Source of the DNA: a virus
DNA: 64,000 nucleotides
Direction: 5' to 3' (one strand)
Virus record (IMG/VR): IMGVR_UViG_3300045988_160259
Location: 1-64,000 of that record
The notes beneath the pieces were generated by a model. That model was not told the origin of the DNA, ran no database searches, and worked only from the letters and a program-made list of their open reading frames with translations. A program made the position numbers and the translations under genes. The stretch's first letter is position 1; the number at the start of each line of letters is the position of its first letter. Positions 275-45,463 of this stretch are shown here, piece by piece.

Positions 275-326
275 TCAGTAGCTATAGGAAAGAACACGCC
301 TCAAATTTATAATATCACTTAATATT
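275..326 (-). CDS. predicted terminal mini-exon of the tape measure gene (..EGV|ILSDIINLRRVLSYSY*)
   Basis: Follows the predicted omega-G at 327. Its first 6 nt AATATT can pair with AATATT beside the internal guide (P10). It completes the split GT|A codon in frame. Confidence 0.35.
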
Positions 327-632
327 CAAATAGTCTATATTTTTCAAACCGCCAATCGCTTGCGGTCTTACATTAAGGCATTACGCCACCCAATATGGGT
401 TAGTCTCTGAACGTCTTCCATATCATTTCTGACTTAGGAAGTTCGCTGCGTCTGGGAGACTTGCACTCCCGGTTATCCCTAGTTTAATTATTTTTATGGT
501 TTCTATCCAATAACGAACTGTGAGTTTAAAACTCTACCGCATTCACGCCTTCCGTTTCCGGTTACGTTGTAGCTAATTAAACCTTATGGGGACTTCCCGC
601 AATTAAATAGATTTTACAGGAGCAAATATTTT
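327..632 (-). ncRNA. group I self-splicing intron in the 3' end of the tape measure gene
   Basis: Minus strand carries, in canonical order, P-like AATTGCGGGAAGTCCCC (588-604), Q-like ACGCAGCGAACTTCCTAAGTCAG (429-453), R GTTCAGAGACTAA (400-412) and S-like AAATATAGAC (331-341). P1 is AGGGGT|AAA pairing with GCTCCT (618-623). Confidence 0.75.
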
Positions 633-3600
633 ACCCCTTCTAAAGCCATGATTTGTGCCTTAATAGCATTAATATCATTGCTCTTTTTGGATATTGATTT
701 ATCATAGGAATAATAGTCAGCTTTTGCTTGAAGCGCCGACTTTCTCTTTTCTATGATTTTATCAAGATAATCAACCTCTGTACTCATAGCATTCTTATAC
801 AGATCAACCAGACTGTCCTGATATGATTTCACATCTGCAATCGAACCTTGAATACCTTCACGGTAATCTTTTGACTTGTCATTATATTCCGTTAAGGAAA
901 TAACCCCATTGTCATAAGACTCTTTTAGTTTTTGCAGACCCGTGGTATAATCTGCAATTTTTTGTTTTGCCGTACCAATACTCTGCTGTAAGAGAGCAAT
1001 CTGTGCCAATCCATCTTCAGTAATGCGGCCTTGTTTATCAAGGAATGCATCATCGTTCAGAAGGGCGCGGAAACTTTTCAGCTCATCTTCAAGGTCACTG
1101 TACTTCTGGATAGCATCGTCAAGTGGCTTGAAACGTAGCTCATAGATACTATCTTGAAGAGATTCATTGTCCGTAATTAGTTCCAGAGTATTTTCTTTTA
1201 GCGTTTGAATCTTTTCTGCATAATCTTGATACGATTTAGAATTGACATCAAGAACCGCCTGTTTCTTCCGGTATATTTCCATCTGCTTTAGATTCTGCTG
1301 TACCTGAGCGTTATTATTATCTATACGGTCAGTGTATAAATTCTCTGGCACATCACGATTCTGGGATTGCAGGTAAGAAATATATTTCTCCGTAATATCC
1401 GAATTACGTTTGATTCCGTCAATTACATTCTGGATAGTATCAATTTTAATCTGATCCAATTTATCCCGTAGTTCAAGAAGGCTAGTAGAAGCATCGTAAA
1501 TCTTAGCTGTGAAATCTTGAATATTTTTCATAGCAGCTTGATAAGCTTCGGAACCTTTCTTAAGATAACCACTGGAAAGTTGTGAATTTACTTCTTTCTG
1601 ATAATCGGAAAGCTTTTTGGTAAGCTGATTGTAAGTATCTTCCTGTGCTTTGATGGAATTATTCAGATTAGCATAATTGTCTGGATTGTCGATGGCTACG
1701 CCAAGTGCATCATTCAAGGATATTTTGGAATCGGCTACGGATTTTATCGCATCATTGATGTCTACGATCGCATCATATTCTTTTTCAATGATTTCCAGAC
1801 GTTTTTCGGCGAGTTCGGTGATTTTATCTTCGAGCTTTAACGCATTGTCTCTTGCAGATAAGTAAGATTCATAATAGCTTTGGAAGTCATTAATTTTCTT
1901 TTTCAGATCTTCATCTGTGATGGTATCTATATTAATACTACCATTCATGATCTGGTTCTTATAAGCATCAGACAAACTAATGCTATTAGCTTTTGCCAGA
2001 TAAGCATCTGCTGCCCGTTGATTATGAACCATTTCATTCGTTGCCTTACCGATTGCATCTGCCGCGGCTGCTTGTTTATTTGCAAGACCTACTGCACGTT
2101 CGATTGCATCAGTTGCAAGTTCTGTCATACGGGACAGACGGGAGAGCATAATTTTGATAAAATCAATTACTTCTTCGGTTGTTGACTTTGCATCAGAAGA
2201 GGACGAAGAGCCGCCGGAACTTCCTCCGGAAGATGATCGAGTTGAACCACCGGAAGATGTTCCACTGTTTCTACGACTACTGCCATCAGAAGATGAGTTA
2301 TGGCTGGTATTATTCTGTTTCTTTTTGTCTTCCCATGTGGAAGAATCCGCTTTTGTTCCAGAACTTCCAACATTAAATCTTCCCGATCCACCAGAGAACG
2401 CACTACCTAAAGAATAACCACCACCTGCAAGTTGTGCATGAGAGCCGGTAACATAACCATGTTCAAGTAACTGCTCCGTCTGATCACCGTTAAATACAAC
2501 ATCATCTTTCTTTAGATTTGCAAAAGTAGGATCGCCGCCATTCAAGATAAACGCCTTACCATCCCGAACGATTGCTTCTGGTTTTAACTCATTTACAAGC
2601 GCATGTGGTTCATTGTGAGCAAGTCCCCAATTACGGCTTGCAGTACCTGCCGCATGAGCAGTTCCTATAGCGTGTGCCGTACCATTTACTTTTGGAGCCG
2701 TACCATTAGTCTTAATATTGTAAGTCAGACTTCTTGTTTTATTACCTGGTAGATTTTCAAGTCCGGAAACAACCACACTGTAAATAACCGTAGCATTTTT
2801 GTCTTTCGGATCATAACTGTCAATCGCACTATGGTCAACTTTGTATTTTACCGTAGCGTCCTTATCTTTCGGCGTATAATTTACAATCGCTTCTTCGTTT
2901 ACACCAGCTTTTACAAGTAATTCTGGCGTAATTCCAGAAATCTTTGTAGAGACGTCGGCAAGAGCATTCGGATCAAGATTTACCCCTATTCCTACATCAA
3001 TCGGATGAGTAGCAATATTAGAAAGTTTCGACTGAAAATCAGTATCGTCAAGACCTAACTTTGCTGTCGTATCAGCATCAAGATTCTGTAGCTGTCCTGC
3101 CAACTGTTGTACTTTCTGCTGTGCATCTGTGGTATCAATGTCGATACCCTGTGTTTTCATCGTATTCTGTGCGTTCAGAATCTCTACAGCATTCTGATAT
3201 TCCTGTAATTTTCCAATCGCATTGCCCAGTTCTCCGTCAACCTGCGAAGTATCAACCTGTAGAATAGCTGGTGTATTTTCAAGATTTTGCTTCGTAGCGT
3301 ACAGGGATTGTAAACTGTTGACAGCATCTTGTGTATCGGCATTAACAGGAATCGTGCCGTCATCATTTCTGAACTGCTCCAACTGACTCTTCAGATCAGA
3401 GATCTTTTGATCGACAGAACTTGCATCCGCATCAATTACAATATTATTTTGTCCAGCCTCTTGCTGTTTCTGTACCAGATAGTCAAGAATATTATTGGCT
3501 TGCTCTAATCGTTCTGTCCGAACTTCTGGTTCCAAATCAGCGTCATTGACTTGCTGAATATATTCCTTAACCTTGTCAATATCATCTGTGATTTCACTGA

Positions 3601-6250
3601 ATGAATCTGTGTCCAAATTGATGCTATCAAGAGAAGTTTCACCCATTCCATCAAGAGCTTCTTTTGCAGACTGAGCTTCTGTCTTTAGTTGTTCCAGAGA
3701 TTTAACCGGCTGATCGAGGTCGATGTCAAAGCCAAAATCATGCAGTTTTCTTAACACTGATTGTACAGCTTCCACATCAATTCCCAGTGCATCCGCAATT
3801 TCTTGATCGTTTCCGACACCAAAGTTAATATCCCAGGAACCATCTTCATTCATGTGCGCCCATTCAGAATTAAGGTTAGAGATATCTTGTAAGAATGCTT
3901 GACATCCTTCCTGTCCTTCTGTGAAGTAACGCTCCATCTTCGGATAGGATTCTTCATAGGCAGTCACAATTTCATCTACACTGGCATTGGTCAGATCCTT
4001 ATTGGACATAAGGTCAACAAACTCACGGAATTTGTTTTCTCCTACAAGTCCCTTATCATATAGATCTTTGATGGATTCCATGTTACCCTGGATGGAATTA
4101 TACATATCACCTTCTTCACCACCGGACATAGCATCCTGCCATTGTTGATAAGCAGAAGTAGCAGTTTGATACTGATATGCTAGATCCTCCAGAGAGGAAA
4201 TATTATCCAAAATACCTTCGCGCTGTGCCTGTAAGCCGCTGACATCTTGACCTTTGACCATTGCATCGGCAATCTGCTCCTCGATTTGTCTCAGAGCTTC
4301 TTGTTGATCTGCAAGGCCGGAAAGATAATCCGCTTTGTTCATTTCAGATTGTTGCGCCTGTAGTTTTGCAAGTTCTTCACGGTTGATATGATAACCGTCT
4401 GCTGTTTTCTCCAGAGCACGCTCCGCATCATCTCCGAACATCTCTTTAAATGCTTTGACATTATCAGCAGAAATACCTGCTCCCGAAACAGATTCGGACA
4501 TAATCGTCTTAAGTGTTTCCAAATTTGCTTGCGCTTGCTGAATGGTAGTATTGATTTCTGAGAAGGAATCATCCACTTGATTCATGGATACGGTTGCCGT
4601 CATACCCATATCCGTTAAGAGATCAACAACTTTTGCCACACTTTCAGCAGAATCATCAGAAACAATTCCGAGATCCATTGCTTCGTTTACTGCCATGCGT
4701 AGAGCATCTTTACCAGACACAACATCACTTGTGTCAAGATTGATGCTCTTGAGGTCAATGTCTGTGTAATTCTTCAACTCTTTGAGTTTCGAAAGTACAG
4801 TATTATTTAACTTATCTGCACCTCTACCGGATAAGCGTTCTTTGAACTCATAAGTCTTTTCGGATGCTGTATCAATACCATCTGCAATCTCATCAAACAG
4901 TTCCTTGTATTTTTTACCGGAATCTCTACTGACAATATTATCTACGGATGCTTTTACTCCATCTAATGCAGTCTTTGCTTCTTCAACTTTAGAAGTATCT
5001 CCACTTTGCAAAGCTTCGTTATATTTGTCCACAGCATCCGCATATTGCTGATACACAGTTGCTGGTTTATTATTACCGTAACCTTCTGCAAGCATGGAAT
5101 TTTTCAGATACTCTTGATAGACTTCTTGGTGCTTATCCAAAATATCTTTATAGGAAGATTCCGCATCTTCCGCGGAACTGATAATATTGTCAAAGTAATC
5201 AGTATTCTTGCCCTCATCTTGGAATTGACGCTTCAGCTCTTTGACAGTGGCAAGGAAATTGTTCAGCTTTTCATCTGCTCCTGTAACTGTTTCATTTTCA
5301 AAACCGAGTTGGAACTGACCTGTAGCCACACCATTATATTGTTTGAGTCCTGCTTGCTCTGCCGCTTTCTGGATTTCTTCGACCTGAGACTTACTGTTCC
5401 GGTAACGTTTGAGCATCTCTTTATAGGTATCAGAATTTGTATATTCAGATTTCTGTGGTTCCGATCCGAGCATAGCTAAAGTAGGAGTGTTACCAAAGAA
5501 TGACTCATAATCATCTTTGGTCATGGCTTTATTAACTTTTTTGTATGCTTCTTCATGATCGGGGTCATTCAGCCAGCTTTTCGCATTTTCAACCTTAAGC
5601 TGTTGCATCTTCTCAACCTGTTCATCCAGCTTACCATTTACCAGATCAATTCCATCTGCTTGCTCACCGTAAGAATCAGATAATTGACTTTGGATATCAA
5701 GCAATTGACTCTTCGTGTTGTATGCTTCTTGCTCCGTAAGAGTACCGGATGCTAAAGACTCTTTTAACTCTTGTACTTTTTGAATATTATCATCTAAAGA
5801 TTTATTCTTTTTTTCTAAGACACTTGAGTCCTCTTTTGTTTGTTGTATTTGTTCTTGAAGATGTTGTTGTTGTGCTCTATATACTCCAAAACCAACCGCT
5901 ACGGCTGCTAAAGCACCAGTAAATATACCTAATGCAGTTGTTGATATACCAATTGTTGCTGCTAAACCAGAAAATGCTGTTTTTAGACCAGAAAGTCCAC
6001 TGGATGACGCTTCTAGTTCGTGCATTTTTAAGATTACATCGTCTGTGTTATCTGCTAAATCCGCTGCTTTTAAAGCAGCCGCGGCGAATTCATCAGAAAT
6101 ATCTGCGCTATAAAATACTTTTGCTATATCAGTTACATTAGACAATCCCTTGATAGCATCCGCAACACGATCTTTGCTTGAAGATGCAGAGATTACTTGA
6201 TCTGCGATAGATAATAAATCTTTTCCTATACTTGCTTTTTTTAATGACAA
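614..6250 (-). CDS. tail tape measure protein, distal part (1878 aa ORF; predicted exon 6247->633)
   Basis: N-terminal hydrophobic segment, long coiled coil, LVNELKPEAIV motif and a Ser/Gly-rich linker. The only start is a TTG with no SD, 3 codons after an in-frame TAA. The last 6 codons and the stop lie in the intron. Confidence 0.8.
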   Translation of the reverse strand: MSLKKASIGKDLLSIADQVISASSSKDRVADAIKGLSNVTDIAKVFYSADISDEFAAAALKAADLADNTDDVILKMHELEASSSGLSGLKTAFSGLAATIGISTTALGIFTGALAAVAVGFGVYRAQQQHLQEQIQQTKEDSSVLEKKNKSLDDNIQKVQELKESLASGTLTEQEAYNTKSQLLDIQSQLSDSYGEQADGIDLVNGKLDEQVEKMQQLKVENAKSWLNDPDHEEAYKKVNKAMTKDDYESFFGNTPTLAMLGSEPQKSEYTNSDTYKEMLKRYRNSKSQVEEIQKAAEQAGLKQYNGVATGQFQLGFENETVTGADEKLNNFLATVKELKRQFQDEGKNTDYFDNIISSAEDAESSYKDILDKHQEVYQEYLKNSMLAEGYGNNKPATVYQQYADAVDKYNEALQSGDTSKVEEAKTALDGVKASVDNIVSRDSGKKYKELFDEIADGIDTASEKTYEFKERLSGRGADKLNNTVLSKLKELKNYTDIDLKSINLDTSDVVSGKDALRMAVNEAMDLGIVSDDSAESVAKVVDLLTDMGMTATVSMNQVDDSFSEINTTIQQAQANLETLKTIMSESVSGAGISADNVKAFKEMFGDDAERALEKTADGYHINREELAKLQAQQSEMNKADYLSGLADQQEALRQIEEQIADAMVKGQDVSGLQAQREGILDNISSLEDLAYQYQTATSAYQQWQDAMSGGEEGDMYNSIQGNMESIKDLYDKGLVGENKFREFVDLMSNKDLTNASVDEIVTAYEESYPKMERYFTEGQEGCQAFLQDISNLNSEWAHMNEDGSWDINFGVGNDQEIADALGIDVEAVQSVLRKLHDFGFDIDLDQPVKSLEQLKTEAQSAKEALDGMGETSLDSINLDTDSFSEITDDIDKVKEYIQQVNDADLEPEVRTERLEQANNILDYLVQKQQEAGQNNIVIDADASSVDQKISDLKSQLEQFRNDDGTIPVNADTQDAVNSLQSLYATKQNLENTPAILQVDTSQVDGELGNAIGKLQEYQNAVEILNAQNTMKTQGIDIDTTDAQQKVQQLAGQLQNLDADTTAKLGLDDTDFQSKLSNIATHPIDVGIGVNLDPNALADVSTKISGITPELLVKAGVNEEAIVNYTPKDKDATVKYKVDHSAIDSYDPKDKNATVIYSVVVSGLENLPGNKTRSLTYNIKTNGTAPKVNGTAHAIGTAHAAGTASRNWGLAHNEPHALVNELKPEAIVRDGKAFILNGGDPTFANLKKDDVVFNGDQTEQLLEHGYVTGSHAQLAGGGYSLGSAFSGGSGRFNVGSSGTKADSSTWEDKKKQNNTSHNSSSDGSSRRNSGTSSGGSTRSSSGGSSGGSSSSSDAKSTTEEVIDFIKIMLSRLSRMTELATDAIERAVGLANKQAAAADAIGKATNEMVHNQRAADAYLAKANSISLSDAYKNQIMNGSINIDTITDEDLKKKINDFQSYYESYLSARDNALKLEDKITELAEKRLEIIEKEYDAIVDINDAIKSVADSKISLNDALGVAIDNPDNYANLNNSIKAQEDTYNQLTKKLSDYQKEVNSQLSSGYLKKGSEAYQAAMKNIQDFTAKIYDASTSLLELRDKLDQIKIDTIQNVIDGIKRNSDITEKYISYLQSQNRDVPENLYTDRIDNNNAQVQQNLKQMEIYRKKQAVLDVNSKSYQDYAEKIQTLKENTLELITDNESLQDSIYELRFKPLDDAIQKYSDLEDELKSFRALLNDDAFLDKQGRITEDGLAQIALLQQSIGTAKQKIADYTTGLQKLKESYDNGVISLTEYNDKSKDYREGIQGSIADVKSYQDSLVDLYKNAMSTEVDYLDKIIEKRKSALQAKADYYSYDKSISKKSNDINAIKAQIMALEGVKYLLL

Positions 6251-6272
6251 AGTGTATTATATTTAGTATAAT
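6244..6272 (+). promoter_or_regulatory. sigma70-like promoter for the plus-strand two-gene module
   Basis: ATGACA, 17 nt spacer, TATAAT, followed by RBS AAAGGAGA and the ATG at 6309. Confidence 0.55.
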
Positions 6273-6308
6273 TTTGTTTCTATCAAAATTCTACAAAAGG
6301 AGATAACT

Positions 6309-6773
6309 ATGGCATTAATCAAGTGTCCTGAATGTAATCGTGAAATTAGTGATAAAACTGAATATTGTATTCATTGTGGTTTTCCGTTAAAGCAAAATTA
6401 TACAATTATCATAAACGGAAAAATATATTCATGCGAAGCAATTCAAAATGCAATCAACGACTATAAAAATAATATTATTGATAGAAACCATTTCTGTGGT
6501 ATTATCATGAGATCTATTAACAATACACATGCACTTTCTACACATTATGCTCTTGAATTATGTAATTATATAGAAGACAATCTTGAAATTCCAAAAGAAT
6601 TTAACGGAGAATCAGAAGAAGAAGAAAACAAACCACATTGTCCAAAATGTAATTCAACAGCAATTTCTATCACAACCCGTGGATATTCATTCGTCAAAGG
6701 ATTTGTTGGATCTGGCAAACCAATGAATGTATGCCAGAAATGTGGATACAAATGGCAACCTGGAAAGAGATGA
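6309..6773 (+). CDS. double zinc-ribbon protein
   Basis: CPECN..CIHCG at the N-terminus and CPKCN..CQKCG at the C-terminus. Good RBS. Opposite strand to all surrounding late genes. Confidence 0.75.
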
Positions 6774-8011
6774 AAAATATGAAACATCCAGAAGAATCCA
6801 GTTCCAATATTATTTATCAAAAAATGTTGGATAGTATTTTTAAAGTAATAAAACAGAGATTATTATGTACACTCGACCAGAAATGGACTTTTCATGGTGA
6901 AATTGATTATCCAAAATATCATGATATAAGATTTAAATTAGGATACCATGAAGATATAGAATATTCTATAACAGGAGTCTGTGATGTTTTAAAACGATTT
7001 TCTTTAAAGAAACTAACTTTCAAAGGTGATATATTTGATGATTCCAGCTCGGATTGCGTATATCTCGATGTCGATTATCATGAAAGAAAATATCTTGGCG
7101 ACTTTGAAGCTATCATCTATAGGATCTTAAAAAATAATCGTAGTTACAGAAATTTTTACGAAACTTACGAACGATACACAAAACAAAATCCATTTCAATA
7201 TGTAGGTAATTTAATTAAAAATCGTTTCCTTAACATGGAAGTAGAAGAGTACTCAGAGTTTGATTGGATCAGTTACCATTATACCGGCGAGTATAAAAAC
7301 GATTCTTTTGAAATCTTTATAGATAATAGTGATCAGCTTTTTGATGATGAAGAAGATGTTTCTTTTGATCGTTTCGAAATATATACAAAAGAATTCCAAT
7401 TATCATTTGAAGAAGAACAGAGCGAAAAAATCCGCGAATTATGTTATCTATTAAAAACTCAAAGTATTCCGGTTGAAAATTTCCTGATCAGAACTACTAC
7501 AATGCATTGCATCAACCAGAAACATCATCTTCAAAGAATAAAGGCACTTGTATATATAGATACTGGCAAGACGATTAAACAAGAAGAGATAGAAGCCGGA
7601 TTCTGCATCGAATGCAATCAATACTTTATTACAGAAATAGAATATCAAAAGCTTTGCAAAAAAGGAAGAGTTTGTTGCCGAGTTGTTACATTACCAGAAT
7701 ATCAAGAAATTTCTAAAGTAACAGATTTTAATTTGGCTGGTGTTTCTTTACTTAAAAGTTATGGATACAATGTCAATGCCAAAAATAATTTGCCAGATGC
7801 CGAAAGAAGACGCATATTATCTTTTATTGTAGAAAATAAGATTGAATCCATTGACCGAATTATAGGATTCATCGAATGGCTGATCAGAAGAAATTCTAGT
7901 TCCAAACTTCAAGTAGCACGTTCAAAATGGAATAGAGATCTTGATTACATGAAAAGATACAAACCTGTCGAAGGAATTGTGCGTGTTGGCAGTATATATC
8001 AAAGAAAATAA
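6770..8011 (+). CDS. hypothetical protein, translationally coupled to the zinc-ribbon gene
   Basis: ATGA start/stop overlap at 6770-6773 (the ORF track starts at 6731). Cys cluster [13 protein letters not shown]. No family recognised. Confidence 0.7.
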
Positions 8012-8033
8012 CACATATTATAAAAGAGAATTT

Positions 8034-8606
8034 TTATAATAACATATACATAGCATCATTTTCAGCTATTTCCATATTCTCTTCACGAAGCATGTACTCA
8101 TCAAATTTTGAAAACATATTCCGCTCATAAAATCTTTTTGCTTTTTTGTCAGCGTATAAAACTATGTAATTTGCTGTCAACTTTTCTTCTGAGAGATTTC
8201 TGCATATTTTAATTACATCACACATAATACTATCACTTAAATAAAAATGATCTTCTGGATTTTGACTATTTTTAGAAGATTCTTCCATATACATTTTTTG
8301 GAAATAAATATCCACGGCAAAAATATCTATTTTAATCGATGGAAGTATTTTAACATAATTGTCCATTTTTAATATAATTCCAGATGCCGCCAAAGAAAAA
8401 ACTCCAATAATCCTTCCTGTGATAGAATCATATACTTTAAATGGTAATCCATCATCTGTATCCAAGATATCATTTTTAATCAACTCATTATGAATATAAT
8501 AATCCAATCGCCGATTCCCACATGAAAACGCCTGAATATCATAATAATCTTCAGGCGTTACTCTGCTATACGAATAATTTACTTCTTCTCCATATTGATA
8601 ATTCAT
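8034..8606 (-). CDS. GNAT acetyltransferase, TacT/AtaT-like toxin candidate
   Basis: N-terminal FSCGNRRLDYYI motif, IFAVD..Q block and C-terminal RFYERNMFSKF typical of GNAT. The acetyl-CoA loop is divergent. Confidence 0.55.
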   Translation of the reverse strand: MNYQYGEEVNYSYSRVTPEDYYDIQAFSCGNRRLDYYIHNELIKNDILDTDDGLPFKVYDSITGRIIGVFSLAASGIILKMDNYVKILPSIKIDIFAVDIYFQKMYMEESSKNSQNPEDHFYLSDSIMCDVIKICRNLSEEKLTANYIVLYADKKAKRFYERNMFSKFDEYMLREENMEIAENDAMYMLL

Positions 8607-8749
8607 TTGTTTTTCCTGTTTTTAGTTTTTCTGTTTTCGAAACGGTTAATAGCATCTATGCTAGATTTTACATTACGAGAGAAAAAATCATTTGCTTTTT
8701 TAGGATCTAAGATAAAAGCTCCTGTTGTTGGTTTAGAAATTGATGCCAT
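8603..8749 (-). CDS. small protein overlapping the GNAT start (candidate antitoxin)
   Basis: MASISKPTTG.. with RBS AGAGAGGG. ATGA overlap with the GNAT gene. Promoter-like TTGAAA, 17 nt spacer, TATATT upstream. No family recognised. Confidence 0.45.
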   Translation of the reverse strand: MASISKPTTGAFILDPKKANDFFSRNVKSSIDAINRFENRKTKNRKNK

Positions 8750-8949
8750 ATTATCCCTCTCTTTCTTCTTAATATATAAAACCTCTGTTCGCATTAAAGT
8801 GTCGGTATCTTTAGGATATAATCAGTTTCTAATAATAATATATCATATTGTGTTACAACTTTCAACATACTTTAGAATAAGAATTTTTTCACTATCAAAT
8901 TCAGAAGTGGGTGATCCACGTTAGAAAATAACACAAAGTTATACTGATA

Positions 8950-9445
8950 ACGGTATTTGATTTACCGGAAGTTTTTCATACGCATTCGCGCTACATTTGG
9001 TTACTATAAAAGTAAACGTATTACTGAAACTTTCTCTAAATCGCAATACGTACTATACATTAAAAGAAGAATAATACTAAGGCGACTATTCTCTCCGAGG
9101 ATGGGTATGTCTCTGGGGATACTATCCGAAAAGGATATTGTCCTGCTTATTATCTCTGTATTGATACGTAGGTGTCATCTTTATTTTCATAAAATTAACC
9201 ATATATCTTCAATCAATTTTTTCGGTTTCCCTAACATTGTGCGTTATTCCTTTCGGACATTCGTTTTAGTTTGATTGATTTTAACGAGTTTTTCAAGCAT
9301 TTACTCCTCTATGACACAAAAATTATATTATAAAACATGTCATGCTCCGCCATTTGATCTATAACGCCATTATGTTATATTTCTTATGTCGGCTAGGCTC
9401 ACTATCATGCAAGTATAAGAGATAGAAACCCATGATTTCGGGTTT
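8950..9445 (-). ncRNA. group I intron core (5' part of the intervening sequence in the tape measure gene)
   Basis: 5' splice site CTTAGGT|AAA (exon ends at 9446) pairs with GCCTAG (9393-9398), including the U.G pair. R-like CCAGAGACATACCC (9099-9118) and S-like GAGAATAGTCGCC (9081-9093). ORF-free and hairpin-rich. Confidence 0.5.
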
Positions 9446-12400
9446 ACCTAAGTTTTTAAAAAATTCAAATATTCCACCACCAGCAAGTAGAGGTGTTAAA
9501 ATACCAATTTTATCGATTATTTTTGTCAAGACTTCAACAAAAGAATTCCCAAAATCAATTACACCTTTAATCATTCCAGAATCAGCCATTGTTGCTGCTA
9601 ATTCTTGACAAGATGCTTTTATTCTATCAATAGAATATTGAATGGATTCTTCATATTTATCTTGCTCTTTTTTAGCACTTCCTGCAGAATTTTCTGCTGT
9701 TTCATATGCTTTTTTTATAACATCAATATTATTTAAAGCGGCAGCTAAAGCGTTACTTTGATTTTTTCCAGCTAATATTTCAAGCAAAGATGCACGATTA
9801 ATATCAGTCATGCTTTGCCATTTTTCACCAATACCAACAACGATATCATAAATATCTTTATATGTATTTTGGTCTTTCATAATGTCAAAACCACCTGTTA
9901 ATGCTTTGACTTTTGCTTGAAGTTTAGAAGTAGAAGTAATTAAATTATCAGTGTCTTCTCCCATTTCGGAAAGTTCAACTTCTGACCCTCGAAGTCTAGC
10001 ACTTACAGTTTTCCACATATTTCCTACTTTATCCGGGTCCTGAAGTGTTGTGTTGGTTCCGGTAATTAAAGCAATTGATTTTGAAAGATCTGTATTTGCG
10101 GCATTGAATGATGCAGCACTTCGTTGTAACGCTTCTCCAATTCCACCACTATTGATTGCAAAATTATTGCTGACTTCATTAAATTTGTCAATGATACTCA
10201 TCGCATCATCAGCTTCCAAATTAAAGCCTTTTAATGTCGAGATTAGAGAATTATTGGCTTCTTCAATGTCAATTCCATCACCAACGTTTTTATAAATGAG
10301 AGAAACTCTTGCTAATTCTTGACTATCTGGGATATTGTATCCCATTCTTGCCCAATCAGAAGTAGCCGAAATAGTGTCCGTAATTGTAGCTCCAACATCT
10401 TTTGCCAAATTTGCATAATCCGAAAGTTTTGACTCTAAATCACTAACCGTCGCATCTGATACTTTTGATAAATCTGTAAAAGCGCTATTGACATCAGTCG
10501 CCACTGAAATAATCTGTTTTCCATAATTTACAACATCATAAATACTAAAAAATTGCGCAAAAGATTGTTCTAAACCACTAGAAATTTTATCTTTAACATT
10601 TTGAAAAAATTTATTTCCTGTTAAATCCATTTGTTTGGATTGGTTTGAAATCGCTAGGAATTGAGCTTCCAAACCTGATAAGTCGGCTTCAGAACCTAAC
10701 GTTTTAATTTTATTGATTATCTCATCAAGTTCGTCCCCAAAGACAGCAACGGCTTTCCCATTGTCTCCCATAAAATTATAAATTTTACTGATTAATTTTT
10801 CGGCAGAATTTATGGATGTTCCTTTTCCAACTTCTTTTAGCTTGGTTTCTGTTTCTGATGCTTGATTTTTTAGCTCAATGAACCGATTAACTTGATCTTC
10901 TGATAGTAAATCTACACTGCTTATTTTTTGAGCTTCTTCTAATATAGTATGTAAAGTTTCTACTAAATCTTTATAGTCTTGTTTTTGGGATTTTAAGGCA
11001 CTAGAATCGTAATTGGAAATACGATTAGCTAAAGAAGAAAAATACGTTTTTTGTGTACTAATATTGGTTTTTTGATGGGCAGTTATTAAGTTACCCTTTT
11101 GATCTACCGTAACAGAATTACCGTTAGAACCAAGAACTTTATACGAAAGCGCTTGCTTACCATTTAATTCTCTATAATTCTTTTCTACATTTACTATTTG
11201 ACCTAATTTATCTAGATATTGAGAAGCAGCTGCTGTAGCCTCAGACCATTCATTGGTATTGAAAGGTATGTTACCATTAAGTCCTGTATTTACTCCTGAT
11301 GAAACAGATTGTATCTTGCTTGTACTATTTTGTAAAATAGAGGCGAGATTTTGTAATGCACCAGCTTGAGAAAGTAATTGATTTAACTGTGTAAAATAGG
11401 TGTTTGTATTAGTATCAGCATTTGCAATAGCTTTATTAATTTCGTCTAAAGCAATGGCTAATGAAAGAAGATGATCTGCTTGTTTCTCTGTTACTTTTAG
11501 TCCTTTTAATATGTTGGAAACATTTGTAAGAGAATTAATATTTGACAGAGCAGTAGCTAATTTGTTGAATTCATTGCCTAAATCGCCAAAAGTAGTAACT
11601 TGTCCTTTGGTATTCGATACATTATTTAAAGAATTAAAAAACTTTTCTAAACTAGAAAATAGCTTTGGGTCTGGAAGTTGAACTTGTCCAATTGCAGTTA
11701 ATTGATTCGAAAGTACATCTAAAGCATCCTGAATTTGTTTTAATGCAGTTACTGCTTTTTGAGAAGCTTGCTCGAATGCTGTTCCAATTTTTATTGCTTC
11801 TTCATCCACGGAGTTATTTAATTTTGGCCCAGGATTGTTTGTAGATACATTAATATTTGAAGCTTCTTTTTCTTTTTGAATCAGCTCTTCATATGCAACA
11901 GTCAATTTATTGATTGTATCTTCTGTTTTGCCCAATTGATCAAGTTGGTTCGTACCACCCATGTTTACGTATTCTTGATAGGCTTGTACAACATCGTTAA
12001 TACGTTTTAACTGATTCTTTTTTACATCGCCATCTTTTTTAGTGATTCGATCAAGAATAGCTTCTGTTTCTTCCCATTTAGAATTAATATCTGTTTGAGA
12101 AAAAATATTATTTGATCTTGCAATAGTTTCTTCTACATTTTGGATAGCGCTAATTATATTTTTTAGGTCAGACAAATTATTTAAAGAATTAGAAAGTACC
12201 TTACTAAAATCTTCTAATCCATTAAATTTTAAACCTTTCGAGTCAATTTCTGAGAGCAGACTTTTGATTTCTTCCATTTTTGAAAGAACTTCATTTAATG
12301 TTGAAACGTCTTTCTCCGAAAATACAGACTGATTACTTGAAATATTTTCTTTTATTTTATCAATATTTTCTTCTGTTCTCTCTGCGAATTGACCGAGAAA

Positions 12401-13807
12401 AGACGATAATTCATTTCCACTACAAAACTCATTAAATTCAGAATATAACTGTTGAAGTTGTTTTCTAGCATCTTCAATTTCTTTTCCGATATTAATGTTT
12501 GTTTTGCCATCTGTATCCAAAATTGCTTTTCCGATTTTAACTTTTTCATCATCAGGAACAGCAAGATGAATATTAATAGGATTATTTTCAAAGAAACTTG
12601 TTACTTCTTTGATAGAATCCTTTGCTACAGATGTTGCATTATGTATTGCAGCCCTTAAAGATTTATCATATACTTTTTCTATATTATCTATATAAACATT
12701 GCCACCAGAATTTTCCAGTTCTTTTCGAGCTACATTTATTTGATTCTGGGTTAAAGACGGATCGCTTTCTGTCTTTTGGGTTTTTTCATATTCAGAATCG
12801 ATACGTAGCTTAACAGGGGCAATAATTGGCTTTTTCGAAGCTATCGCCTGGAGATCTTCCAAAACAGTTGTAAGCTCAGATTTTAATTCTTTCGAACTGA
12901 TCTTTAATTTGATAACACCATTTTCTGATACTTTAGTAGAAGAATTCTTTGGAGCTTGAGAAGTATCAGTTGTTATTTTTTTTACATTTTTTTGTAAAGA
13001 AATTAGATCGTCTACACATTGACGAGACATTTCATTTAATTCATCTTCTGAAATGATATTATTCCAATTGATTTTTCCGTCATCAATGGATTCGTATATG
13101 TATAAAATATTTTTTGCAGCATCTAACATACTTGATTGAGCGTCAGCTAATTCAATCTGTTGTTGTCTGTATCCTGATTGGGTTTTCCGTAATAAATTAT
13201 CATTAATACTATCTATTTTATCTGCAGCATCATAATATTTTTGAATTAATTCATTGCATTCTTTCTCTATTTCTGCAACAGATGCATTTAGATTTGTATC
13301 ATAAGATTCATTCTTAATTCGAGATATTCTATCTGTAATAGTTTTTAAAGGTACCGAATTAGAGTTCTTTGAACTTGAAACCATTTTTTCTGTATTAATG
13401 CTAAGTTCTTTAAAAGCACTATTTGCAGATTTAACAGCATTACTCATAGTTGTGAGTTGTGTTGTAATTAACTCTATACCAGTATGTTGCCCAATAGTTT
13501 GTAAATTTTGTTTTAGAATATTAATTTCAGAATTTAAAGCTTCGAATTTTTGTGTGACTTCTGATTTGAATTTCACAAATTGAGAAGTATCTAATTTTAC
13601 ATCATCAAATTTCTCAAATGTACTATCTATGTATTTTTTTAAATCATCAACAATACCTTTAATTTCACTTTTTTCTTTTTCGATGTCGGAAGTTAAATCA
13701 ATTTGTCCATCTAATCCATTTAATGTATTTTCGATATCTGAAAACATTTTTTGTAGTTCTTTTTTGTATTCAAATCCAATACTAACTAATCCATCTTTTT
13801 TTGCCAA
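9359..13807 (-). CDS. tail tape measure protein, proximal part (predicted exon 13807->9446)
   Basis: TTG start with SD AAGGTGGTGA. TP901-type TMP core (..NSGGIGEALQRSAASFNAANT..ITGTNTTLQD..) followed by a hydrophobic segment. The last 28 codons look like read-through into the intron. Confidence 0.85.
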   Translation of the reverse strand: MAKKDGLVSIGFEYKKELQKMFSDIENTLNGLDGQIDLTSDIEKEKSEIKGIVDDLKKYIDSTFEKFDDVKLDTSQFVKFKSEVTQKFEALNSEINILKQNLQTIGQHTGIELITTQLTTMSNAVKSANSAFKELSINTEKMVSSSKNSNSVPLKTITDRISRIKNESYDTNLNASVAEIEKECNELIQKYYDAADKIDSINDNLLRKTQSGYRQQQIELADAQSSMLDAAKNILYIYESIDDGKINWNNIISEDELNEMSRQCVDDLISLQKNVKKITTDTSQAPKNSSTKVSENGVIKLKISSKELKSELTTVLEDLQAIASKKPIIAPVKLRIDSEYEKTQKTESDPSLTQNQINVARKELENSGGNVYIDNIEKVYDKSLRAAIHNATSVAKDSIKEVTSFFENNPINIHLAVPDDEKVKIGKAILDTDGKTNINIGKEIEDARKQLQQLYSEFNEFCSGNELSSFLGQFAERTEENIDKIKENISSNQSVFSEKDVSTLNEVLSKMEEIKSLLSEIDSKGLKFNGLEDFSKVLSNSLNNLSDLKNIISAIQNVEETIARSNNIFSQTDINSKWEETEAILDRITKKDGDVKKNQLKRINDVVQAYQEYVNMGGTNQLDQLGKTEDTINKLTVAYEELIQKEKEASNINVSTNNPGPKLNNSVDEEAIKIGTAFEQASQKAVTALKQIQDALDVLSNQLTAIGQVQLPDPKLFSSLEKFFNSLNNVSNTKGQVTTFGDLGNEFNKLATALSNINSLTNVSNILKGLKVTEKQADHLLSLAIALDEINKAIANADTNTNTYFTQLNQLLSQAGALQNLASILQNSTSKIQSVSSGVNTGLNGNIPFNTNEWSEATAAASQYLDKLGQIVNVEKNYRELNGKQALSYKVLGSNGNSVTVDQKGNLITAHQKTNISTQKTYFSSLANRISNYDSSALKSQKQDYKDLVETLHTILEEAQKISSVDLLSEDQVNRFIELKNQASETETKLKEVGKGTSINSAEKLISKIYNFMGDNGKAVAVFGDELDEIINKIKTLGSEADLSGLEAQFLAISNQSKQMDLTGNKFFQNVKDKISSGLEQSFAQFFSIYDVVNYGKQIISVATDVNSAFTDLSKVSDATVSDLESKLSDYANLAKDVGATITDTISATSDWARMGYNIPDSQELARVSLIYKNVGDGIDIEEANNSLISTLKGFNLEADDAMSIIDKFNEVSNNFAINSGGIGEALQRSAASFNAANTDLSKSIALITGTNTTLQDPDKVGNMWKTVSARLRGSEVELSEMGEDTDNLITSTSKLQAKVKALTGGFDIMKDQNTYKDIYDIVVGIGEKWQSMTDINRASLLEILAGKNQSNALAAALNNIDVIKKAYETAENSAGSAKKEQDKYEESIQYSIDRIKASCQELAATMADSGMIKGVIDFGNSFVEVLTKIIDKIGILTPLLAGGGIFEFFKNLGKPEIMGFYLLYLHDSEPSRHKKYNIMAL

Positions 13808-35204: not shown

Positions 35205-35287
35205 TACCGGCAGCGAGACTCGAACTCGCACTGCTCATAACAATCTGGGCTTAAACCAGATGTGTCTACCAATTCCACCATACCGGC
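35205..35287 (-). tRNA. tRNA-Leu(UAA), long variable arm
   Basis: Hand-folded cloverleaf. Anticodon arm TCTGG-TTTAAGC-CCAGA, T arm GCGAG-TTCGAGT-CTCGC. Acceptor stem has two G.U pairs. Confidence 0.8.
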
Positions 35288-35322
35288 ATACGGAGGCACT
35301 GCCTCCATTCGCTAATTATATA

Positions 35323-35412
35323 CGGAGCCTGTAGGATTCGAACCCACGCGCCGCTATTAACGGCCTATCAGTTTTCAGGACTGACCTCTTCAACCAACTT
35401 GAGTAAGACTCC
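35323..35412 (-). tRNA. tRNA-Ser(UGA), long variable arm
   Basis: Anticodon arm TCAGT-CCTGAAA-ACTGA, T arm GTGGG-TTCGAAT-CCTAC, acceptor GGAGTCT/AGGCTCC. Confidence 0.85.
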
Positions 35413-35421
35413 AAACAAAAA

Positions 35422-35505
35422 TGGGCAGAGCAGGAGTCGAACCTGCGGTGTTTCTAATGTAACGGATTTACAGTCCGTCGCTATCGCCACTAAGCACATC
35501 TGCCC
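35422..35505 (-). tRNA. tRNA-Tyr(GUA), long variable arm
   Basis: Anticodon arm ACGGA-CTGTAAA-TCCGT, T arm GCAGG-TTCGACT-CCTGC, acceptor GGGCAGA/TCTGCCC. Confidence 0.85.
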
Positions 35506-39354: not shown

Positions 39355-39426
39355 CAGGAAGCCAGGGATTCGAACCCTGATTAACAGTTTTGGAGACTGT
39401 CGTGTTACCAATTACACTAACGACCT
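39355..39426 (-). tRNA. tRNA-Trp(CCA)-like, acceptor stem with two mismatches
   Basis: Good D, anticodon (ACAGT-CTCCAAA-ACTGT) and T arms (CAGGG-TTCGAAT-CCCTG). Acceptor AGGTCGT/GCTTCCT mispairs at 4:69 and 5:68. Confidence 0.55.
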
Positions 39427-44518: not shown

Positions 44519-44592
44519 TTGGGGTGGTAGGACTCGAACCCACGACCGTTCGGATATAAGCCGAATGCTCTCGCCAACTGAGCTACACCGCA
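44519..44592 (-). tRNA. tRNA-Ile(UAU)
   Basis: Anticodon arm TTCGG-CTTATAT-CCGAA, D arm GCTC/GAGC, T arm GTGGG-TTCGAGT-CCTAC. One C.C mismatch at 3:70. Confidence 0.75.
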
Positions 44593-45463
44593 ATAATGCT
44601 ACATAAGTAGCAAAATAAGTACGCTGAGATTAAACGTATCTTCGGAAACCTTTACCGACATTATTTTTTCTTCGGTTATCCACTATATGTTGCTTACGCA
44701 CACACATAGTATCTTCCACAACCGCCTTTTGAGAAGAGGCTTATCTTCTTTACTGTATGACTACTCAAGTTTCATCATTCCATTAACACTGCCGTGCTAT
44801 AAATCTCCGCTAAGAGAACTGTGCAGAATCCGCTTAACACATCCAGATATTGCGTATCTTTCAGTGTGTGTATTACCTCCGAAGAGATTACACATTTTGG
44901 CTGCTTACACCATACAGAGGTACAGACTTTCGCTTTATAATTTGTTTGCCTTTTGCATCAAACCAATTTTTATGTTCTTCCTGAATATACTAATTAATAG
45001 AAACGAAATTGAATACAGAAGACGCGCTGCACCAGATGTTTCGTTATCTTTTGGATAACAAAATCCATCACGCCTTCGTAGCTTTCGGTTATAATCCCTA
45101 CTCACATCCTGCATAAGCTAATTTGGCATCTCTACCAATTCACTTACCCAAATGGACATCGCACTTGTCTAATAAGGACTCGCACTATATATCCTTCTAA
45201 TTCCCCATCATATCTTCATAGGTTCGCGTGAGCTATTCTGTTGCGCAGAAAAATGATTCTCAGCGGTTGCCCCTGAATCACCTTGTTGCTCCCTATTTCC
45301 TGACACTATTTCCACACAGGACTTACTCGTTTTACCGGTATGAAACGGCACTTTTTGAGTGCCTGGGATGTTAGTTTTGCATAGATTGACCAATTTTCAT
45401 GGCGACGAGTTGTAAATTCGCCTTTAATACGCTCACACGCATCTATCTGTGCTATGCCACGAG
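44593..45463 (-). ncRNA. large ORF-free structured RNA candidate between two tRNA(-like) genes
   Basis: ~870 nt with no credible ORF and many hairpins, including cUUCGg loops. Shares CACGCCTTC..GGTTA..AGCTAATT blocks (45068-45124) with the intron at 540-578. Strand inferred from the flanking tRNAs. Confidence 0.4.

Follow-up and report, generated by a model that had tools for sequence, protein, structure and literature searches.

A group I intron with multi-gene cargo is predicted to interrupt the tape-measure gene of a large gut-Firmicutes phage

We analyzed positions 1-64,000 of the virus record IMGVR_UViG_3300045988_160259 (this whole 64,000-nucleotide (nt) stretch is called the window below), with the focus on a 3198-nt insert at 9445-6248 on the minus strand. 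With good confidence, this insert is a group I intron that interrupts the tape-measure gene of a large gut-Firmicutes phage and is spliced in cis. A preliminary description of the window had proposed a tape-measure gene split by a group I insert; the proposal proved largely right and is now backed by comparison with related contigs (labelled L below). What the sequences establish are the boundaries of the element, its guide pairings, and core helices that are conserved and covary; for one relative they also provide an empty-site allele. The element displays every sequence-level hallmark of group I introns that we tested, a match to the Rfam model excepted. We classify it as a group I intron whose novelty lies in a multi-gene, bidirectional cargo of variable content, with no homing endonuclease or insertion sequence (IS) gene.

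Exons and predicted splice boundaries

The interrupted gene is laid out as follows:
9446..13807, minus strand: exon 1, 1454 codons, with a TTG start, a strong Shine-Dalgarno sequence and a PhageMin_Tail domain
8880..9445, minus strand: conserved non-coding 5′ module (ribozyme), ~565 nt, with no notable open reading frame on this strand
6248..6308, minus strand: 3′ tail of the intron, 61 nt, with the terminal G6248 as predicted 3′ splice site
633..6247, minus strand: exon 2, ~1872 codons, whose first 6 nt (TCATTA) form P10 and whose 3′ end is set by a second group I intron; ~90% amino acid identity to relatives

The proximal open reading frame (ORF; 9359-13807, minus strand) encodes 1482 amino acids (aa). 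Its TTG start is preceded by aaaaGGTGGTGAaataaa, and Pfam places PF10145 (PhageMin_Tail) at residues 1134-1347, in agreement with the TTG start, strong Shine-Dalgarno sequence and TP901-type core ascribed to it earlier. The homology of all relatives to this ORF ends at ..KNLG, codon 9448-9446, i.e., after T9446, which is the point (..FFKNLG) where the sequence had been judged to stop looking like protein. The called ORF extends to 9359 through 29 intron-encoded codons, and these are not conserved except in the near-identical L027/P0003. The distal ORF (614-6250, minus strand; 1878 aa) opens with TAA TAC ACT TTG TCA TTA and has no Shine-Dalgarno sequence upstream, so that the earlier remark on a TTG lacking such a sequence three codons past an in-frame TAA holds. 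Pfam gave no match for this distal ORF. The insert has a G+C content of ~0.30, lower than the ~0.40 of the distal ORF.

The triplet at the 3′ boundary of the insert varies among relatives (ATG/ACG, TTG/TCG) around an invariant G and is therefore not a start codon. The exon 2 frame opens 2-3 codons ahead of the junction. For the largest group the boundary reads AGTAYG^AYATTCAAAAC (^ marks a splice boundary), with both ATG and ACG seen. The exon 2 frame of the L009 group opens two codons ahead of TTG CAG TTA AAA; in L018 and L024 TCG stands in place of TTG, and the next start codon is 67 codons off. Beyond codon 3, which counts as intron under the splicing model, the 67-codon stretch before the first ATG has 5 synonymous versus 3 conservative changes among 15 contigs of the L009 group, and appears to show signs of purifying selection. 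As we read these sequences, exon 2 has no usable start codon of its own, and coding would begin right after G6248. A G at the 3′ end of the intron (omega-G), here G6248, is characteristic of group I introns; it is constant in the relatives, the preceding base being T or C.

Removal of the 3198 nt keeps the frame across the 9446/6247 join (..FFKNLG^SLKKASIG..), as had been foreseen with the join ..FFKNLG^SLKKASIGKD... The predicted spliced DNA reads ..CTTAGGT^TCATTAAAA.., and the predicted junction-spanning peptide is ..FFKNLGSLKKASIGK... Corresponding predictions for relatives are AAAAACATCGGT^ATATTCAAGAC (L047 type) and AGCATAGGT^CAGTTAAAAAAT (L009 type). Exons 1 and 2 would together give a product of 3331 aa, longer past the second intron. 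The long spliced protein of the preliminary description is retained in this estimate, but its total of ~3,340 aa, as any figure for the complete protein, is an extrapolation, and so is its tail of roughly 0.5 micrometre.

Relatives and an empty-site allele

A blastn search of the region against GenBank phages gave no match, while IMG/VR holds many relatives. A Blautia-like Lachnospiraceae is the probable host (P0002). In all of L001-L024 the proximal homologue stops matching at the same codon (..GGT^), and the distal homologue is found 3.4-9 kb further on, with different genes between the two. Another 75 viral contigs were retrieved with the last 118 residues of exon 1. Breakage at the same codon (after GGT or GAT), followed by unrelated tails of 0-73 codons, was seen in 59 of them; the other 16 are continuous and read on for 700-2400 residues. 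One continuous tape-measure protein also runs through the break point in the cultured phages Sundance and CB473P3. The gap to the next long ORF measures 0.85 kb in L088 and L091, 1.4-2 kb in L035, L085, L092, L037 and L074, and up to ~7 kb elsewhere.

The comparison with related tape-measure genes lacking the insert, which had been suggested beforehand, supports boundaries of this kind in relatives. When 2058 nt (..CATGGT^ to ..TTACAG^) are taken out of L074, its protein aligns without gaps to that of the continuous L077 across the junction (LVQSLTGHG^AVQYDKENGWSGIIVD, the latter beginning AVQYDKENGW, in L074 vs. LVQSFTGHGAVKYDSENGWSGIIVD (LVQSFTGHGAVKYDSENGW) in L077). Both boundaries are therefore fixed to the nucleotide in one member of the family, with U before the insert and G at its end. 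At a greater evolutionary distance, ..GFIKNF-T-QLKSLGD.. of the continuous L087 corresponds to ..FISSIG of exon 1 plus QLKNLGD.. of exon 2 in L009.

Guide sequence

The elements that would bring the exons together lie at the 5′ splice site and shortly inside the intron:
9446..9451, minus strand: exon strand of P1, TTAGGT, with the 5′ splice site after T9446; pairs with GCCTAG 9398-9393
9426..9445, minus strand: hairpin AAACCC-GAAATCAT-GGGTTT at the very start of the intron, within the P1 loop
9393..9404, minus strand: internal guide, TAGTGA 9404-9399 (P10 strand), then GCCTAG 9398-9393 (P1 strand)

P1 consists of TTAGGT paired with GCCTAG and sets U9446 opposite G9398, which gives the U·G pair expected at a group I 5′ junction, with the guide near the 5′ end of the intron. 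The pair is present in 9/9 aligned sequences. P10 consists of TCATTA (6247-6242) paired with TAGTGA (9404-9399), including one G·U, and its guide strand is contiguous with that of P1. Across lineages P10 is 96% paired, with compensatory changes at 5/6 positions. Both helices, with the U·G pair and the single G·U, had been named in the preliminary description and were found as described. Relatives of the L009 type have an equivalent hairpin, TAGCCA..TGGCTA, in the same position as that of the window. The final base of exon 1 is T in all interrupted lineages examined but L070. In that contig (L070:10340-10420) exon 1 ends in C, and the guide base opposite is A, not G (ACCGAC).

To the earlier statement that no nearer TTG^ site fits this P10 we add that two other P10-compatible sites after G occur within the insert, at 8043 and 6461, but both reach a stop within a few codons. 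An unconstrained search for P1 and P10 returned spurious chance solutions of 13-14 pairs and was discarded. We used only a constrained search, in which the 5′ site was set by homology and the 3′ site had to be in frame, after G and within the first 44 downstream codons. Under these constraints, 19 lineages have a contiguous guide 12-64 nt inside the insert with 10-19 pairs (shuffle p mostly <=0.01). For the window, 12 contiguous pairs were reached in 0.95% of shuffles (p=0.0095). The pairs divide between P1 and P10 (P1+P10) as follows:
window 6+6; L028 6+7; L101 7+10; L037 7+12
L041 6+9; L048 6+12; L047 3+14; L058 6+8; L062 5+10
L068 7+10; L073 6+6; L082 6+6; L085 6+6

P10 is unusually long in many relatives (8-14 pairs). 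The guide tracks both exons: ATATTC in exon 2 goes with GAATAT and ACATTC with GAATGT, while CTGAGT in exon 1 goes with GCTCAG and CTGAAT with GTTCAG. As a control, guides and exon pairs were swapped between lineages. The result was a block-diagonal matrix with a mean score of 13.7 for self and 3.0 for non-self combinations; the window guide scores 12 with its own exons and 0 with those of all 15 other lineages.

Ribozyme core

From exon 1 to ~8880 the window shares ~95% identity with the 1.6-kb ENA contig L027, and past that point the two are unrelated, which delimits the non-coding module at 565 nt. Within it, the following core elements were assigned, all on the minus strand:
9290..9309: P3 5′ strand GAGGA (9309-9305), J3/4 and P4 5′ strand TGCTTG (9299-9294); AAATGCTTGAAAA resembles the classical P element
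9117..9149: P4 3′ strand TAAGCA (9149-9144; Q-like ATAAGCAGG) and P6 hairpin GGACAATATCC-TTTTC-GGATAGTATCC (9143-9117)
9097..9116: R-like CCAGAGACATACC (P7 5′ strand GAC(A)TA, within 9116-9104), then P3 3′ strand TCCTC (9101-9097)
9050..9096: P8 hairpin (9096-9063, loop GCCT), J8/7 and the S-like P7 3′ strand TAATGTATAGTAC (9062-9050)
within 9062-9050: P7 3′ strand TAGT(A)C
9017..9050: candidate P9 hairpin CGTATT..AATACG, as read from the sequence

The P, Q, R and S-like elements follow the canonical order in the window, and the helices, assigned by hand, succeed one another as P3-P4-P6-P7-P3′-P8-P7′, the order of a group I core. R- and S-like elements had previously been placed at 9081-9118; the R-like element (9116-9104) falls within that range, but the S-like one (9062-9050) lies outside it. 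Another S candidate, GAGAATAGTCGCC (9092-9080), was dropped after alignment with L033 and L029 and belongs to P8. Both of these relatives are interrupted at the same site; their R (TCAGAGACTAC) and S (AATGTATAGTCC) elements are of textbook form, and in sequence they resemble the second intron of the window. Within the P4 3′ strand and P6, L027 differs from the window in the P6 loop, and in the candidate P9 stem it has an A-U to G·U change.

One subfamily comprises nine sequences (window, L027, L009, L062, L029, L033, L088, L092, L038), which share ATAATGGCG, GGAGnnAnTGCTTGAA and a well-aligning region from R to S. We examined 33 pairs of P1, P10, P3, P4, P7 and P8 in these nine sequences: 92% of the cells are paired, and 20/33 pairs are changed on both sides. 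None of 500 shuffles reached the observed values, and sliding the partners reduced pairing to 29-38%. P3, P7 and P8 are 100% paired and P4 85%, with compensatory changes in each helix, among them three compensatory pairs in P3. This hand-made covariation test is supportive, not independent.

A covariance model (R1) spanning P7-P3′-P8-P7′ was then built from seven relatives, with the window and L027 left out. Over both strands of the 64 kb, its sole significant match is at 9054-9107 on the minus strand (30.6 bits, E=1.6e-5). The model picks up subfamily A only, and at least two sequence subfamilies exist. The 5′ modules of all lineages were too divergent for a global MAFFT alignment. Pairwise similarities form a chain that leads from the second intron of the window to L033 (E=2e-10) and from there to L038, L088 and L009.

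Cargo genes and their promoter-like sites

The cargo occupies 2.6 kb between the core and the 3′ splice site and consists of four genes, two per strand:
8603..8794, minus strand (sense): 63-aa gene, overlapping the next gene by 4 nt; promoter-like site at 8865-8837
8034..8606, minus strand (sense): 190-aa acetyltransferase-like gene; phrog_1758 'acetyltransferase', 1.2e-11
6731..8011, plus strand (antisense): 426-aa gene, function unknown
6309..6773, plus strand (antisense): 154-aa double zinc-ribbon gene; PF13240/PF12773, phrog_2546; start 61 nt from the 3′ splice site
6244-6272, plus strand: promoter-like site ATGACA-17-TATAAT, 11/12 match, straddling the intron/exon 2 boundary

The sense pair had been described as a GNAT toxin pair. 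The 63-aa and 190-aa genes do overlap, but the toxin label is only weakly supported, by the phrog_1758 match and a weak PDB match (9ilr, N-acetyltransferase, E=0.0017) of the 190-aa protein, which matched no Pfam GNAT model and no PADLOC model; the 63-aa protein had no family match. A stretch with 92% DNA identity to the 3′ half of the 63-aa gene occurs in the introns of L012, L015, L020, L021 and L024. The 426-aa protein matched nothing in Pfam, PHROGs, PADLOC, NCBIfam or PDB. The plus-strand pair had been called a promoter-equipped two-gene module, and the site at 6244-6272 is in keeping with that name. No strong terminator was found on the gene strand within the insert.

Family searches found no homing endonuclease domain (LAGLIDADG, GIY-YIG, HNH, His-Cys box or PD-(D/E)xK) in the cargo proteins; the 426-aa protein, having no match at all, might conceivably be a novel nuclease. 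None of the four proteins matches a transposase, and neither tnpA nor tnpB, the genes of the IS200/IS605- or IS607-type element expected in an IStron, is present. In L062 (10927-12033) and L038 (10873-12042), by contrast, the ribozyme core of the junction intron is directly followed by a sense-strand gene for TnpB (OrfB_IS605 + HTH + TNB), and these copies look like IStrons at the tape-measure site.

Relatives differ in their cargo, which includes MazF-like proteins, a trypsin-like peptidase, DUF5067, GmrSD_N (DUF262), DUF3800, lipoproteins and TnpB. GmrSD_N, DUF3800 and MazF-like genes (L041:11585-12556, L047:12191-13165, L058:10986-11978, L074:10955-11716, L009:4685-5320) are content typical of defence islands. 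Even the near-identical L027 keeps the 565-nt module and then carries different cargo. Of 21 lineages compared, 19 have an antisense ORF whose start lies 39-96 nt from the 3′ splice site; it is a zinc-ribbon gene in 14 and lipoprotein- or membrane-like in several others. As different cargo is found at one site in relatives, the stretch from the core to the 3′ splice site behaves as an exchangeable island of accessory genes in which the essential gene is kept.

An imperfect 18-nt direct repeat (15/18) brackets the cargo at 8899-8882 and 6287-6270, both copies with TTGATA on the gene strand. One copy is placed exactly at the end of the ribozyme module and the other in the 61-nt 3′ tail. The repeat could be due to chance, a cassette boundary or a duplicated promoter.

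Mechanism and alternative explanations

That the intron splices, that it does so in cis and what its cargo does we infer from sequence. Most likely, the usual group I reactions take place, but with the 3′ splice site far from the core. The whole ribozyme (P1-P9) would be contained in the first ~565 nt, followed by the 2.6 kb of cargo and the 61-nt tail to G6248. The late transcript would pass through the insert, the guide (9404-9393) would bind the end of exon 1 in P1, with U9446 opposite G9398, and free guanosine would cut after U9446. The 5′ half of the guide would bind the first six bases of exon 2 in P10 and so place G6248 in the guanosine site. Exons 1 and 2 would then be ligated in frame, in a product that runs on past the second intron at 633. 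The sense cargo genes would be expressed from their own promoter-like site, and the antisense zinc-ribbon and 426-aa genes from the predicted promoter at the intron/exon 2 boundary.

A number of observations weigh against this scheme. Beyond the six pairs of P10, nothing ties the 3′ splice site to the core across 2.6 kb, and 1.7 kb of the insert would be read from the opposite strand off a good predicted promoter. The helices were picked by eye from nine sequences and their blocks aligned by hand, so that the pair counts lean to the proposed structure; for P7 of the window, two bulged bases (one per strand) were removed. Minimum free energy folding of the 5′ module is no better than that of shuffles (z=-0.34 for the window; L009 gave z=-1.13). 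For the window's own type, no closely related allele lacking the intron turned up. The predicted spliced junction was also looked for by exact scans: the window type had 0 matches in metagenome contigs, a degenerate pattern for subfamily B had 32, all in unrelated genes, and viral contigs gave 0. The junction peptide had no match spanning both halves among 5.8 billion proteins. Finally, the module of the window does not match the group I model of Rfam, RF00028, at its gathering score. No match was seen at E<=10 in 5900-9800, in 8990-9460 (471 nt) or in L009:1000-5000, and at the gathering score Rfam found no group I intron in the whole window or in the loci of 13 relatives. The test is weak and says little, because RF00028 gave only 21.8 bits (E=0.003; gathering 50) on the canonical intron at 310-642 (minus strand) of the same window, which it aligned end to end. 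It also misses L009:3455-3997 despite textbook R and S elements there. We ascribe the failure to the poor reach of RF00028 among phage introns of this kind, although it still counts as a negative outcome.

The same ribozyme might act in trans: the exon 1 RNA would end in the cargo, the exon 2 RNA would start at a promoter in the 3′ tail, and P10 would join them. We regard this arrangement as unlikely, yet as a genuine alternative. The 8-14 P10 pairs of many relatives would suit an intermolecular contact, and no helix closes the cargo into a loop (pairing between the 3′ tail and the 5′ module was no better than in shuffles for 7 lineages). The 3′ tail bears TTGATA-19 nt-TATAAT on the gene strand, ending ~8 nt before G6248, with the 18-nt near-copy of the TTGATA stretch at the other cargo edge. 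In L088, one of the short relatives, the ribozyme is immediately followed by a strong hairpin that resembles a bidirectional terminator, and 1.7 kb of antisense transcription would hamper a full-length precursor. In the window, however, P10 has only 6 pairs, one of them G·U; a spacer of 19 nt does not suit a sigma-70 promoter well, and the promoter scan did not list the site. Cis-splicing is the default; the insert has no convincing terminator on the gene strand. To our knowledge, natural trans-splicing group I introns come from organelles only.

Somewhat less likely again is a truly split gene, with the ribozyme a relic or capable of cleavage only, the 1482-aa and ~1878-aa proteins forming a two-piece tape measure and the insert being an ordinary accessory island. 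The length of the insert and its genes on both strands with their own promoters would suit such an arrangement, as would the ATG or TTG that forms the last intron triplet, in frame with exon 2, in many lineages. Exon 1 is 32-50% identical (aa) among relatives versus ~90% for exon 2, as if they were separate modules, and phage genes-in-pieces that stay functional after insertion of a homing endonuclease gene have reportedly been described (Friedrich et al., ribonucleotide reductase; cited in PMC10448857). The absence of a Shine-Dalgarno sequence before exon 2 speaks against two proteins, as do the ACG/TCG triplets of several lineages, where the next start is 67 codons off and the intervening codons bear signs of purifying selection. 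Stops occur at random distances from the end of exon 1, and a guide that covaries with the first 6-14 bases of exon 2 would be useless unless the 3′ exon were ligated. It is because it gives no reason for this P10 covariation that the two-protein arrangement is unlikely.

An intron of ordinary size, with a nearby 3′ splice site such as that after GTATTG at 9044, a short protein tail and an independent distal ORF, is very improbable. The core does end near 9017, a G does lie shortly past P7, and a join there would add 34 codons before a stop. But CGATTT, which follows GTATTG, is unable to pair with the P10 strand TAGTGA, the conserved module continues to ~8880, and the start-less exon 2 and the P10 covariation would be left unexplained. 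Excision of the insert at the DNA level, as in developmentally excised elements, or decay of a prophage gene, deserves hardly any credence: there are no direct repeats at 9446/6248, family searches of the cargo proteins found no recombinase, and dozens of long viral contigs share this architecture, their frames intact on both sides. For lack of boundary repeats and a recombinase, DNA-level excision was rejected. We also rejected a split intein, the tail after exon 1 being 0-73 unrelated residues, often with an immediate stop.

Other introns and structured RNAs

Exon 2 ends at the further intron mentioned above:
310-642, minus strand: second group I intron, with the 5′ splice site after T633 (..GAAGGGGT^AAAATATTTGCTCC)
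Its canonical elements are P AATTGCGGGAAG, Q GACGCAGCGAAC, R GTTCAGAGACTAAC and S AAAAATATAGACTA. In L009 the homologue continues across this position for another ~497 residues; within the window, no exon 3 was found. Exon 1 of L009 (also of L006 and L008) has two more insertions, L009:1179-3108 and L009:3455-3997, both of which Rfam misses. One of them carries a 490-aa NUMOD1-domain protein, a likely homing endonuclease, and the other, ~545 nt in length, has R and S elements of textbook form. Many database proteins begin with MWKTVS, just past the first of these insertion sites.

Several other RNAs were recognized. A full-length GOLLD RNA (44621-45078, minus strand, 196 bits) adjoins a tRNA gene (44519-44592, minus strand), and a Pistol ribozyme is located at 58475-58541 on the plus strand (69.5 bits; gathering 34.5). 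Counting the GOLLD-adjacent gene, the window has five tRNA genes, three of them clustered at 35205-35505 and one at 39355-39426 (both minus strand). A drum RNA (RF02958, 71 bits) is found just downstream of the tape-measure gene in L010 (15946-16052, plus strand).

Discussion

The choice of a remote 3′ splice junction by means of pairings that include P10 is said to have been described by Michel and colleagues in 1992 for the phage T4 sunY (nrdD) intron. The catalytic core of that intron is reportedly likewise at the 5′ end and its 3′ splice site far downstream, beyond an ORF; the distance there is below 1 kb with one sense ORF, whereas in the window it is 2.6 kb with four genes and antisense transcription.

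Tape-measure group I introns have been documented in Bacillus cereus-group prophages (IVS1-3; PMC2504315) and in Vibrio phage ICP1, where splicing was seen by RNA sequencing and reverse transcription PCR (PMC10448857). The intron of the window shares with them the host gene, the U·G pair at the 5′ site, the guide, the terminal G and the P/Q/R/S elements. Several introns per gene are another common trait, with a second one at 633 in the window and up to two more in exon 1 of relatives. Those introns, however, carry one or at most two homing endonuclease genes and nothing else, in contrast to the four genes on both strands in the window, none recognisable as such, and to a content that differs between close relatives. 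In IStrons (CdISt1, BcISt1 and others), a group I core at the 5′ end is separated from a distant 3′ end by IS genes (PMC4227781). Similar to the window are their core at the 5′ end, the foreign genes before a distant 3′ splice site and the Firmicutes or phage hosts. In the survey of PMC4227781, though, they measure ~1.4-2.6 kb and carry IS genes only, while the cargo described here is toxin-antitoxin-like and of unknown function, is partly antisense and reaches ~7 kb in relatives. The hexacoral mitochondrial intron ND5-717 is a giant, many-kb group I intron that houses several bona fide genes (PMC6545197). It is organellar and has a conserved mitochondrial gene set, unlike the variable cargo of the window, and there is no sign of common descent.

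In the usual description, group I introns of bacteria and phages are short ribozymes with no more than a homing endonuclease on board, or an IS element in the case of IStrons. What is unexpected here is the presence of several unrelated genes on both strands, swapped between close relatives, inside an essential structural gene. Our literature search turned up no group I intron from a phage or bacterium in which the cargo is multi-gene and bidirectional and comprises neither a homing endonuclease nor an IS element. The preliminary description had called a cargo-bearing intron with antisense genes unusual; this applies to the multi-gene, bidirectional and variable cargo, which is new, but not to tape-measure group I introns or IStrons as such, which were already known (PMC2504315, PMC10448857, PMC4227781).

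We tentatively suggest, while thinking it rather doubtful, that large phages of gut Firmicutes have a whole family of group I introns, fixed at one site of the tape-measure gene, which has become a cassette site for accessory genes, a domesticated 'safe harbour'. It would house defence-type, toxin-antitoxin, lipoprotein and zinc-ribbon genes, many of them antisense from a promoter straddling the 3′ splice site. Cargo of up to ~7 kb would be tolerated through an extended P10 that reaches a distant or separately transcribed exon 2, and the family might even include the first natural trans-splicing group I intron outside organelles.

Public protein sets list the tape-measure genes of these phages in two to five pieces each, and tail-length estimates and gene counts are therefore wrong for them; the whole set of introns is missed by the Rfam group I model. 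If splicing is true, six to 14 bases of P10 suffice to select a 3′ splice site kilobases away, and phages can use a self-splicing intron to harbour accessory genes at a place that tolerates insertions.

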